Notes under the pieces: model-generated
Seen by the model: the letters and a program-made list of their open reading frames with translations, nothing else
Database searches by the model: none
Told to the model about the DNA's origin: nothing
Translations under genes and position numbers: made by a program
Origin: Candidatus Versatilivorator sp.
Lineage (GTDB): Bacteria > Acidobacteriota > Terriglobia > Versatilivoradales > Versatilivoraceae
Assembly (NCBI GenBank): GCA_965207735.1
Contig: OZ242296.1
Span: 288,001-352,000 of the forward strand
DNA length: 64,000 bases
Direction of reading: 5' to 3'
Part shown: piece by piece, positions 12,525 to 46,775 of the stretch
How positions within the stretch are numbered: position 1 is the stretch's first letter
Layout: each line of letters begins with the position of its first letter

Positions 12525-12716
12525 TGCCCAACCTCGTCGGACCCCGCAACGCGAATGGTGAGTCCAAGAAGTGCCGATTATAGCCCATCAGTGTGCGAAC
12601 ACATAGTGAACTCACTCTTAAAACCCTAAACCTCACTTTAACCTCATGGTGCCTCTCTATAGTTGGGATTGCTTCCCTGTAATCCAAAGGTGCCCGGTCG
12701 GGCGAGACAACGGACT
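12525..12716. promoter_or_regulatory. Conserved divergent promoter element, copy 1
   Basis: AACCTCA at 12629 and 12640 (11-bp spacing), TATAGT at 12658-12663, then GGATTGC-ttccct-GTAATCC hairpin. A GAGG RBS for the minus-strand regulator is present. Confidence 0.75.
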
Positions 12717-12835
12717 CGAAGGGAGTGCACGAGCTGTTCCATTACGAATCTTCCCGGGAGGTGACCGAGCAGGTTAGCTATTCCGGGCGGAATCGCTGGA
12801 GCCAGTTTCCTTGAAACGTTTTCTCTTGCGGTACC

Positions 12836-15800
12836 GTGAAACTACCAGCACTCATACGTAAAGCAGGGTGCGTTGTCTCTGTGGTGGGCAGAACCAGCCT
12901 GTTGGCAGGTGTGATCGGCTGTGTCAACCTCTTCTTTTGCAATCCTTTACAGGCACAGGGCAACGCGCCGGCAGTCGACCCCGATTCCCCTCCGTGGATC
13001 GTACAAAGCGCCGGCGACCCGGACACCTTCGGCCTGCATGACGAAATCACGGTCGAGCTGACTTTCGACCAGTTGGTCAGGGTTAGCGGGAATCCACGCA
13101 TTACTCTGGATATCGGCGGTGCCACGCGGTATGCGACCTTTTCAGCTGCGGATCCCTCTCTGTTCAGGCAACAGGTTCTGTTCAAATACGTGGTCCAGGC
13201 TGGCGACGAGGACAGCGACGGCCTCGACGTCATCGCCGACAGCCTGGAGTTGAACGGCGGAACCATCGAGGGCTCGGGTGGAGTCGCCGCCGTGCTCGAC
13301 CACCCCAGCCAGCCATCGACCGACATCAGGCGGCCGGTCGATGGCGTCGCGCCCACGGTCACCTTCACTAGCTCCGGCAGCCCATTCTATTCTCCGGAGG
13401 GTCTTGTTCCTGTAGTCGTCAGGTTCTCGGAGCCGGTGACCGGCGTGACCCTGGACGACTTCGTGGTTACCAACGGGACCGCCGAGGACTTGGAGGAGGA
13501 CACTCTCGTCGAGCCATCCGGCTCCACTTATTCGTTTCAGGTAGAGCCCGACGGCGAAGGCGCCGTCACCGTCACGCTGGCGGCCAACGCCGCTCACGAC
13601 GACGCGGGCAACGGCAATGCCGCGTCCCCTCAGTTCCGAGCGCTGGTCGGCGACCCCGCCACGGTCACCATCACCCCGAACACGGTGACCACGACCGAAG
13701 GGGACCCGGTGGAGTTCGAGTTGCTGCGGTCCCAGGACAACGGCGAGCGGACCGTGCAGGTGGAAGTGAGCCAAGTGGGCGACTACCTCACCGGCGACAC
13801 CTCCTTCGGGGCGACCTTTTCCTCCACGCCGGCCACCGTCTCGGTGACCTTCGCGGCCGGCGACACCACCAAGACCCTCTCCCTGGACACGGAAGACGAC
13901 TACCTGGTCGAGGCGGACGGGACGGTCACGCTCACCGTGCTGGCGGACCCGACCGAGGTGGGCTATCTGCGGGGCACCCCGAACACGGCCACGGCGACGG
14001 TGCAAAGCACCGACACTGAGTTATCCGTGACGGTGGACGCTCAGGCTGTCGATCCCGAGTCCGACCAACCTGCTTCCTCCACTCAGGTGCGGGAAGGCGG
14101 CACCATCCAGTTCACTCTGGTTCGCTCCCACGACGTCGGCGAGCACACGCTGGACGTGGAAATCGTCCAGTCGGGCGACTTCCTTGCTGACAGCCACCCC
14201 GGCGGCCTGACGCTGCCGGCGGACGGGCGCGTCCCGATCACCTTCGAGGCCGGGGAGCTGTCGGCGTCGATCTCGGTGAGCACCGACGACGACGCGGTGC
14301 AGGAAGCCGACGGGATAGTGAGGCTAACGGTGCGGCCACGGCCCGGAGATCCCCTCAATCCGATAGCGGGAGAGCCGAAGGTGGTGGTGGTGTGGGACGA
14401 CGACGACCCGCCCACGGTGACCGTCAGCGCTGACGCGGCATCCGTGATGGAGGGGGAATTGATCACCTACACCCTGACCCGTACCGAGGGCTCCACCCTG
14501 TACGACGGCGCCATGTTGGCGGAGGTCGAGGTGACCCAGGACGGGGCCGTGCTGGAGAACCCCGGTCCATTGACATGGACCTTGGTATTCAACGAAGGGG
14601 ATGCGATCTCGGTCTACAGCTGGCGAGCGGTCGATGACGAGGTCCCCGAGGCGGACGGGGCTCTGACCCTCCGGGTGCTGCCGCCGGCGCAATCCGATGC
14701 CGGCCGGTACCTGGTGGGCACGCCCGTCAGCGCCACGACAAAGGTGGTGGACAACGACCTCCCGGCCGTATCGGTGAGCGCGCTGACCGATCCGGTGACG
14801 GAGGGCACAGCCGCGGAGTTCCGCTTCAGCCGAGTCGGCTCGACCGCGGACTCCCTGTCCGTGGGGGTCAACATTCTCGGCCACAAGAAGATCATGAGCG
14901 ACGCCACCCGCGCCCTGGTGGAGCAGACCGAAGCGCCGGCGGACACGGTGGTGACCTTCGATTCGGGCCAGAGCGAGGCGACCCTGACTCTGACCACCGA
15001 GGCCGACCAGGTGAACGAAGGCGACGGCGAGGTCAGGGTGGTGATCGCCAGCTCGGCGGCGTATCAGATCGGTAGCACCGGCTCGGCCACCGTGCTGGTG
15101 CGGGACGACGACATTCCGGAGGTGACGCTACGGTGGGTCACGCCGACTCTCACGCTGCAGAACGATACCTGGGTTGGCGAGATCCTGGAAGGCGGCGAGA
15201 TCTGGTACGAACTGGATTGTTCGGGAAACACGCTCGCGCCTGCCGCTGTTTATGGAGAAAATTTTCGAACGAGAATCGTCACGCGCAAACAGGAAATCCT
15301 GAATCACCCCGCCAGCTACGACAGAGACAATGAGTGGCGGCTGCCATGCTCGGATCAGCCAGCCCCAGGTTTTACGGCGCATGCCTACGGAGCGGGAACG
15401 CGCTACACGGGGCCGCAACAGGGTGAGATCAGGGTCGACGTTCTTCCACAAAAACTGAAACCGCCGCATGGACGGCAATGTTATCTGGATTCCGCAGACG
15501 GCGGAACGGAAGACGTCCGCTTCTGCCCCCAATATACCCTTGGAGGCGTGACGTCGGCGCGGCTGACGGTCACCAACCGCAATCCCACCATCACTGTGGA
15601 AGCCCTCGAAGACAGCGTGAATGAAGGCGAGACTGCCCGCTTCAAGCTGACGCGCCTCTGGAACGACGAAAACCTGCAGGGTTATACAACGACATTCGAC
15701 TTCAAAACGGTTGCCGAGGGAGGATACGTCTCGGCCGCGTTGCCGGGCGGCTCGCGTACGTTCCAGTTAGGGGAGGCCGAGATCATCATCGAGGTCCCCA

Positions 15801-46229: not shown

Positions 46230-46568
46230 ATGAGTGCTACTGATTCGAACAGGGACTTCAGACAACGGCTCCTCGACCTCATCGATAGCTCCGGCGTCTC
46301 CGACCGCCGCATCTCGATGCTTGCCACCGGCAGCACCGATACGGTCCGCAACCTGCGTCGCGGCGCCATTCCCCGTCTGGACACTCTCGAGGCCGTCTGC
46401 CGCACCCTCGGCTACCGGCTTGAGATAGTGCCTGTCGATGAACCGGGCAAGCCACTTGAGAAGCGCCCCGAATGGGTCGCCAGGCTGCGGGAGGAAATCC
46501 GCCGGGACCTCGTCGAGGCCCTCGGGAGGATCGGCACAGGGGACCCCTGGTCGAACAGAGCGGAGTAG
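46230..46568 (+). CDS. XRE/Cro-like helix-turn-helix protein
   Basis: SGVSDRRISMLATGSTDTVRNLRRGAIPRLDTLEAVCRTLGYRL fits the XRE pattern. ORF is open from 46185; ATG 46230 chosen. Confidence 0.7.
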   Translation: MSATDSNRDFRQRLLDLIDSSGVSDRRISMLATGSTDTVRNLRRGAIPRLDTLEAVCRTLGYRLEIVPVDEPGKPLEKRPEWVARLREEIRRDLVEALGRIGTGDPWSNRAE

Positions 46569-46577
46569 GACCCCCCG

Positions 46578-46775
46578 TTGCGGGACTGGTGGGTCCAAGC
46601 AGGACCCACGATAGTTTCTCCGCGCAGGAATTCACCTACAACTCACTCTGGAACCCCTAAGCCTCATTTTAACCTCACGGTGCCTGTCTATAGTTGGGAT
46701 CGCTTTCCTGAAATCCAAAGGCTCCCGATTGGGCGAGACCACGGACCGGAAACGAATAATCGTCTCGAAAGGCGT
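46578..46775. promoter_or_regulatory. Conserved promoter element, copy 4 (no divergent kinase left)
   Basis: cccctaagcctcattttaacctcacggtgcctgtctatagttgggatcgctttcctgaaatccaaagg. Left half matches copy 2; right flank matches copy 3. Confidence 0.72.

Follow-up and report, generated by a model that had tools for sequence, protein, structure and literature searches.

The stretch of DNA considered here raises the question of why several similar promoters should stand in front of giant exoprotein genes, and which protein reads them. This stretch (hereafter the window) comprises 64,000 nucleotides of Candidatus Versatilivorator sp. (assembly GCA_965207735.1, contig OZ242296.1, positions 288,001 to 352,000 of the forward strand), and the third of its four promoter copies lies head-to-head with the gene of a hybrid regulator at 40216-42573. 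A first-pass annotation had taken a direct repeat in these promoters to be the operator of that regulator and the mark of an exoprotein regulon. We found that the promoters carry an array of four TCAY half-sites followed by a -10 hexamer. The array is probably the binding site of a family of one-chain GAF-PAS-kinase-receiver-winged-helix proteins, which would activate the downstream surface-protein gene from that -10. The best reading of the sequence comparisons is that it is a Pho-box-like activator operator of a horizontally spread regulator family.

All four copies of the ~200-bp element were present at ~12525, 30476, 42574 and 46578; these coordinates are the left ends of the elements, and the cores lie at 12632, 30583, 42681 and 46663. 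The pattern CCTCA-N4-AA[CG]CTCA-N11-TATAGT matched four times in the 5,264,214-nt source genome, each time in the window, and blastn found no fifth copy of the element genome-wide. The 11-bp repeat and the TATAGT described in the first-pass annotation were borne out, but its two half-sites were too few: the "upstream ACTCAC" is real and is the second half-site of a four-site array whose first half-site (CACAT/TTCAC, 11 nt upstream of ACTCAC) had been overlooked. The full motif consists of four TCAY half-sites at 0, +11, +32 and +43, that is, two 11-bp direct repeats, and a -10 hexamer 10-11 nt later. All four arrays lie on the plus strand: copy 1 at 12600-12663 (half-sites 12600, 12611, 12632 and 12643; predicted -10 TATAGT at 12658-12663), copy 2 at 30551-30614 (half-sites 30551, 30562, 30583 and 30594; predicted -10 at 30609-30614), copy 3 at 42649-42712 (half-sites 42649, 42660, 42681 and 42692; predicted -10 at 42707-42712) and copy 4 at 46631-46694 (half-sites 46631, 46642, 46663 and 46674; predicted -10 at 46689-46694). 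Copies 1 and 3 have -10 elements in both directions, since a predicted leftward TATAAT for the regulator promoter was also identified on the minus strand at 12577-12582, 17 nt from half-site 1, and at 42626-42631. Directly after the -10 of copy 3 there is a hairpin with a 7-bp stem (42715-42734, plus strand, -9.3 kcal/mol), which is the same in copies 1 and 2 and disrupted in copy 4. A scan of the window against Rfam gave no family at the four copies, ruling out a known riboswitch or small RNA there; the sole match was an Acido-Lenti-1 RNA at 56627-56672 (RF01687, 42.1 bits).

In addition to the four copies, a divergent array of four half-sites (TCCAC/AACGC/TTCAC/TACAG, with a weak -10, GATAAT) was identified at 1509-1573 on the plus strand. 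A matrix whose training excluded this genome gave it 23.3 bits, and a relic of the regulator 5' leader (E 7e-11) precedes it. With this array counted, none of the five exoprotein units in the window is without one.

An intact or decayed regulator gene lies behind copies 1 to 3, and an exoprotein gene, or what remains of one, lies ahead of each copy, which points to duplication of a cassette. The four copies are paralogues derived from such a cassette (regulator, back-to-back promoter and giant exoprotein gene) and not separately evolved sites. Only copy 3 retains an intact regulator; at copies 1 and 2 it has decayed, and at copy 4 it is gone, with no relic behind the promoter. The unequal sharing of flanks that had been described was also seen: over core columns 0-13, copies 1 and 3 are identical at 13/13 positions and copies 2 and 4 at 12/13, against 6/13 between the pairs, and copies 3 and 4 are identical at 27 of 28 nt of the right flank. 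The conclusion drawn from it, that the promoters are themselves mosaics, proved unnecessary, as 14 of 14 informative sites support one tree, (1,3)|(2,4), and conflicting phylogenetic signal of the kind expected of recombinants is absent. The flank shared by copies 3 and 4 fits an independent truncation of copies 1 and 2. Local exchange between copies, with the left part of the element diverging faster than the core, is possible. Because the copies are paralogues, their similarity to one another says nothing on function.

Conservation was therefore sought upstream of other members of the regulator family. When 55 upstream regions of regulator genes in the genus were collapsed to 31 non-redundant ones, unsupervised Gibbs sampling recovered an array of four TTCAC-like sites, placed at 0, +11, +32 and +43. 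The first held-out set used 79 of 80 loci (L071 lacks the N-terminus), of which 78 had enough upstream DNA and 66 were unlike the training regions, giving 59 clusters, mostly from other lineages. Scored against local shuffles with a matrix built without the window copies, 35 of the 59 clusters reached p<=0.01 and 40 reached p<=0.05, and the strand pointing away from the regulator scored higher in 55/59. The same matrix gave p=0.002 for all four window copies. Information in the held-out arrays peaked at the four TCAY sites, and TAnnnT, which had not been used in the alignment, stood 10 or 11 nt after half-site 4 in 20/35, with other spacers occurring at most three times each. The second held-out set, drawn from 77 metagenome loci with the removal of 24 matches lacking the N-terminus, 8 redundant ones and 3 that resembled earlier ones, comprised 51 regions; 30 of these reached p<=0.01 (15 of the 30 with the -10) and 48 had the same orientation. 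TAnnnT was also found 10-11 nt after half-site 4 in 38 of 48 pattern matches fetched from congeners. Pooling gave 141 non-redundant upstream regions, training rows included, of which 75 contained the array, with a middle spacer of 21 nt in 68, 20 nt in five and 22 nt in two.

Together, these data indicated that the array is a conserved feature upstream of distant homologues, and the concern that the repeat might be no better conserved than its flanks was not realized. The conservation is at the level of the motif and not of the sequence, as blastn did not find the element in 40 relatives. The array also has the anatomy of an OmpR/PhoB operator, namely direct repeats with an 11-nt period, the downstream one at the -35 position and at a fixed distance from the -10.

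These findings bear on the idea that the copies have no function and were carried along by segmental duplication, or else that the repeats are recombination or arm-type sites of a mobile element. The copies are indeed paralogues, and P4-like integrases lie near several sites; against this, the -10 is fixed, the strand is biased and the array is conserved where the flanks have diverged. In close relatives from four other runs, 0/12 changed positions fell in a TCA core or -10, which is weak evidence in the same direction. We consider this explanation extremely unlikely.

The arrangement of -10 elements was examined in the 75 pooled arrays. The rightward -10 was present in 40 of them, and a leftward -10 stood 17-18 nt from half-site 1 in 19, with at most four at any other distance. 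As the sites cover both predicted -35 positions, and as OmpR-family proteins can repress (described in parts of PMC11825685), the regulator could be a repressor of an otherwise active promoter. This is highly improbable in our view, since the operator replaces the -35 (TTG occurs there in 0/40 arrays, partly by construction) and since the fixed 10-11 nt to the -10 is the geometry given for PhoP activation complexes in the passages of PMC11825685. At a few loci (G000:C1:3358941, plus strand; L079; L083), 2/78 in one tally, the orientation is reversed, array and -10 facing the regulator. At L191, L200 and L201 (in G006 and G002), arrays stand back-to-back in pairs, ~0.7-1.1 kb from each other and without a called regulator in the interval; these may be orphan promoters firing outward both ways.

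The presence of the array followed that of the regulator. In the genus, the array-plus--10 pattern gave 64 sites, spread over 13/13 regulator-bearing genomes, and the reversed control gave 0. It gave 0 sites in the congener G001 and one site in 27 other relatives (control, 3); regulator presence was checked in 30 of the 40 relatives, and these kin are not independent. The pattern including the -10 was relied on because, without it, low-complexity TCAY repeats also match (e.g., G000:C1:4902482). G001 is informative as its genome is complete and has no fused regulator, while it holds three ordinary winged-helix regulators like the three of the source genome (G000) and 34 fn3 matches. A resident regulator or eukaryote-like genes as such therefore do not explain the array. 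Of five genomes from other lineages that have the regulator, two contained the strict pattern, although the local arrays of these genomes mostly score well by matrix.

The same comparison bears on the alternative of Pho boxes, or of binding sites for some other OmpR-family regulator resident in the host, with the hybrid gene a mere target. The half-site does resemble CTGTCAT of E. coli and GTTCACC of S. coelicolor (passages of PMC4415409) and TCACAGC of M. tuberculosis (passages of PMC4832192). Yet the upstream region of pstS scored only 3.0 bits and those of the three ordinary regulators scored below 0, G001 has its three ordinary regulators and no array, and hosts from many phyla have this array alongside the family. 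We therefore judge this very unlikely. The host Pho regulon proper was rejected as a candidate on the pstS score, the absence of the array from G001 and the score of the regulator against the NCBIfam PhoB model (161 bits against a cut-off of 296), which also excludes a PhoB equivalog. Host PhoB may occasionally cross-bind an array.

The preferred reader of the array, the hybrid regulator, is encoded at 40216-42573 on the minus strand as an intact, one-chain protein of 785 amino acids with a DosS-like GAF domain, a PAS-like region, HisKA (H322), HATPase, receiver (D611) and an OmpR/PhoB winged helix. It is predicted to be soluble, with no transmembrane segment (maximum 19-residue hydropathy 1.2). 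Receiver and Trans_reg_C domains with intact phospho-sites are thus present in the array-linked regulator, and H322, D611, S638 and K660 were invariant in 86/86 sequences, with a conserved recognition helix. The protein reaches no curated NCBIfam equivalog cut-off, and KdpDE and MtrAB orthologues were rejected on this basis (KdpE 131/325, MtrA 187/300 and KdpD 115/1123 bits).

At E<=1e-100 the family has 10 matches in the source genome and 2-9 in each of 12 of 13 congeners, with no match in the remaining one, the complete genome of G001; a partial regulator occurs in one of 17 more distant relatives. When species genomes were scanned, at least 579 stretches among 600 candidates were confirmed. 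The best 80 of these show 55-72% identity, and their titles name Acidobacteriota, Gemmatimonadota, Spirochaetia, Gammaproteobacteria, Latescibacterota, Chloroflexi, Nitrospinota, Binatia, Actinomycetota and others, a distribution that suggests horizontal spread of the family. The carriers include taxa that we take, from names such as Palauibacter and Poriferisodalis, to be sponge symbionts. Tyrosine integrases of the P4-like kind occur a few kb or less from several arrays and regulator relics (L136, L137 and L149), which offers a possible route for such spread.

The paralogues have the recognition helix in common, and cross-reading of all sites is likely. The claim that the repeat is the operator of the adjacent regulator stands in part: the array is conserved, has a fixed -10 and follows the regulator, but is not exclusive to 40216-42573. 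It is likely a family operator read by up to nine paralogues.

We also considered whether the helix reads the array directly. The W203, R222 and R223 of PhoP match W737, R756 and R757 of the regulator, so that Thr750 corresponds to PhoP Ser216 (numbering of PMC4832192), a residue that touches the A of TCAC via water according to the same passages of that paper. Among 74 regulator-array pairs, two or more TCGY half-sites occurred with Ala750 in 8/27 and with Thr750 in 0/39. In held-out loci, TCGY made up 18/56 half-sites where residue 750 has no hydroxyl against 0/16 where it has one; by locus this was 9/14 against 0/4 (one-sided p 0.04, or 0.16 at a stricter threshold). A single 9-kb stretch of G041 holds one TCAC array and two TCGY arrays, with a Thr750 and an Ala750 paralogue next to them. 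These patterns hint that the recognition helix may read the array through residue 750.

What the arrays control was addressed in the source genome with a matrix trained on 54 sequences from other genomes. At a threshold of >=16 bits it found 19 sites (0.75 expected), and 26 when the middle spacer was allowed to vary by one (0.75 expected from shuffles). Pfam searches were made for ankyrin, fn3, NHL and leucine-rich repeat (LRR) families, with 150 of 218 candidates scored for NHL and 150 of 161 for LRR. A site lay within 1.3 kb upstream of 12 of the 59 genes in these four families and of 16 of the 3615 others (p 2e-15); among genes with an upstream gap of at least 150 nt the counts were 10/44 and 14/1628. 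The 26 sites collapse to 15 promoter families, eight of which precede an ankyrin, fn3, NHL or LRR gene; the family at 4707774 adds a ninth, ahead of an LRR gene for which the gene caller had set a wrong start. Further targets in this genome include a DUF1080 lipoprotein, small exported proteins, a HEPN gene and a YWTD-repeat unit. Of the 26 sites, 16 are backed by a regulator gene, a relic or a leader, and six have no trace of one.

The proposed exoprotein regulon is thus upheld by genome-wide enrichment in the source genome, but the cargo in other genomes was mixed. Among 50 divergent genes hand-picked from 76 regulator loci, eight encode ankyrin, Ig, fn3, TPR, LRR, SWM or GPP34 domains, 26 have no Pfam match (many start signal-peptide-like, judged by eye), and the remainder are enzymes, transporters or transposase. 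At 48 congener sites in 40 fetched regions, 10 of the 57 genes behind them have LRR, fn3, NHL, Spondin_N, SWM or FG-GAP domains, and only five belong to the four families of the source-genome test (first 800 amino acids only). A bias toward exported proteins seems to be general, while a strict regulon of eukaryote-like proteins (ELPs) is seen only in the source genome. Two recurrent neighbours were noted in passing. A conserved gene of ~120 amino acids with no Pfam match stands between the array and a giant Spondin/SWM exoprotein in five genomes (L183, L189, L193, L217; G000:C1:2028240-2028677), and in three genomes (L067, L106, L126) the gene divergent from the regulator encodes a cytochrome P450, in one case fused to GPP34.

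This heterogeneity across phyla, the leftward -10 in some arrays and the location of sites among integrases and transposases would all be expected if the array served the family for autoregulation only, with divergent genes being whatever lay at the insertion site and the enrichment a product of shared duplicated islands. We think this unlikely, as the rightward -10 is better conserved than the leftward one and arrays with an intact -10 outlast the decay or loss of the regulator. In addition, the enrichment survives the collapse to 15 families, and 0 eukaryote-like genes of the source genome have an antisense site.

Several observations nevertheless weigh against activation of surface-protein genes through the array as we have described it. 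Held-out upstream regions had no array at p<=0.01 in 24/59 and 21/51 cases, 66 of the 141 non-redundant regions fell below 16 bits, and G030 has a partial regulator and no strict site. In the source genome, 47 of the 59 eukaryote-like genes have no array, and the gene set came from our own simple caller (3674 genes), which left four Pfam matches without a call. The mixed cargo, with its 26 genes lacking a Pfam match and the 5/57 and 10/57 counts in congeners, belongs here as well. Within the window, 4/16 half-site columns vary among the four copies against 13/45 of the other core columns, so that the importance of the repeat cannot be shown from the window by itself. As for residue 750, the column was picked post hoc among 95 and was not top-ranked; the TCGY trait has six origins on the tree, but the number of independent pairs was too small for significance (median p 0.4-1).

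Based on PhoB and PhoP (passages of PMC4415409 and PMC11825685), the regulator would perceive a signal at its GAF and PAS regions, autophosphorylate H322 and pass the phosphate to D611. Two phosphorylated tandem dimers would then bind the array, the downstream dimer lying over the -35 position and recruiting RNA polymerase, as PhoB and PhoP do. The upstream dimer, on the -35 of the regulator's own promoter, could provide autoregulation of either sign. A regulon of this kind may grow by copying of the regulator-promoter unit in front of new cargo, after which the copied regulator would often decay and the orphan promoter be read in trans by intact paralogues. The activation chemistry looks textbook by analogy.

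If so, a likely route to building a regulon is to copy regulator and promoter, lose the regulator and keep the promoter. A more ambitious proposal, which we advance tentatively and with rather less than even confidence, is a portable "symbiosis switch": the soluble regulator and its four-site promoter would move between unrelated sponge symbionts, wire eukaryote-like and adhesin genes into one host-responsive regulon and expand by cassette duplication and regulator decay, while paralogues re-tune TCAC to TCGC via one residue of the recognition helix. The analysis offers a candidate ELP regulator with a precisely defined operator, and it predicts start sites (near 12670, 30621, 42719 and 46701 in the window) as well as 26 targets in the source genome, all of which can be tested in E. 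coli without culturing the symbiont.

The genes around the arrays illustrate both cargo and decay. At the left end of the window, the 3' part of a paralogous hybrid regulator (HATPase-REC-wHTH; 3-1313, plus strand) is 69% identical to 40216-42573, and is followed on the same strand by a giant exoprotein gene (2041-11649) with reprolysin-like, NHL, fn3, SWM and cadherin domains. Behind copy 1 lies an internally deleted regulator (11754-12524, minus strand), in which the GAF is fused in frame to the last ~57 amino acids of the winged helix, without kinase or receiver; ahead of it, a Calx-beta/fn3-like repeat exoprotein of 5790 amino acids is encoded at 12836-30208 (plus strand). The relic behind copy 2 (30226-30475, minus strand) retains 20 N-terminal codons and then an out-of-frame winged-helix fragment, and a Spondin_N/SWM/fn3/cadherin exoprotein of 3107 amino acids follows at 30788-40111 (plus strand). 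Ahead of copy 3, two open reading frames of 401 and 549 amino acids with one SWM domain (43294-46157, plus strand) are apparently a broken or deleted exoprotein gene, and copy 4 precedes an fn3/cadherin/SWM exoprotein of ~1974 amino acids (46896-52820, plus strand).

A near-identical C-terminal domain closes the giant exoproteins (11380-11649, 39840-40111 and 52550-52820). The final ~110 nt of it have ~40 matches across the genome, and it is a candidate for a common module of secretion or anchoring. A recent tandem expansion has left six near-identical 360-nt repeats (99-100%) in the 5790-amino-acid gene, at 25963-28062 after older ~685-nt repeats. A small helix-turn-helix-like gene with no Pfam match recurs just behind arrays or before copy 4 (46185-46568 in the window; L201:7191-7493; L210:3850-4182). 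An MpaB/Lcp-like oxygenase gene follows the last window exoprotein (53144-54343), and G010 has a gene of that family behind an array (L216:2355-3590). To the left of the window, an insertion sequence has entered the middle spacer of the array of the regulator at 3-1313 (G000:C1:284600-286960; L141:14600-16960), and a second copy of the array lies ~640 nt further on. Arrays in L012/L055 and L017 are followed by the same insertion-sequence end, and such AT-rich promoters thus seem to be hot spots for insertion.

Among known systems, the hybrid two-component systems (HTCS) of Bacteroides likewise have sensor, kinase, receiver and DNA-binding domain in one chain, encoded beside their targets. Those proteins have a membrane-spanning periplasmic sensor and an AraC-type output, whereas the window family is soluble, has a GAF and a PAS-like region and an OmpR winged-helix (Trans_reg_C) output, and crosses phyla. 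The nearest solved relative of the regulator GAF is GAF-A of DosS/DevS (E 7e-19). The His of the DosS "PPYHPP" is the heme ligand; it is missing from the window regulator, and across the family that column has no conserved His, which leaves heme gas sensing of the DosS type without support. Several of the ELP classes tested in sponge symbionts in the passages of PMC13747020 (ankyrin, NHL, TPR, cadherin and FG-GAP proteins), together with fn3 and LRR, were found behind arrays, and that source describes ELPs as letting symbionts alter phagocytosis. The string "regulat" has 0 occurrences in that paper, passages of the hybrid-kinase paper PMC12471899 do not include the architecture of the window regulator, and neither a named ELP regulator nor this regulator family, operator or regulon was found described among the open-access papers that the searches listed (subscription papers and bioRxiv supplements lie outside that scope). 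The closest precedents are Pho-box promoters, in which tandem winged-helix dimers bind 11-nt direct-repeat units (passages of PMC4415409). The array shares these repeats, its TCAC core is that of the PhoP TCACAGC (passages of PMC4832192), and its two boxes, the downstream one over the -35, recall the multi-box activation complexes of M. tuberculosis PhoP (passages of PMC11825685). It differs in that its regulator is a single chain with its own sensor and kinase, its boxes stand 21 nt apart (20-22) and its predicted targets are surface and eukaryote-like proteins instead of phosphate genes, pstS having no array. The mechanism would thus be of a known kind and, judging from the comparisons made here, its one-chain, cross-phylum, ELP-biased implementation appears to be new.

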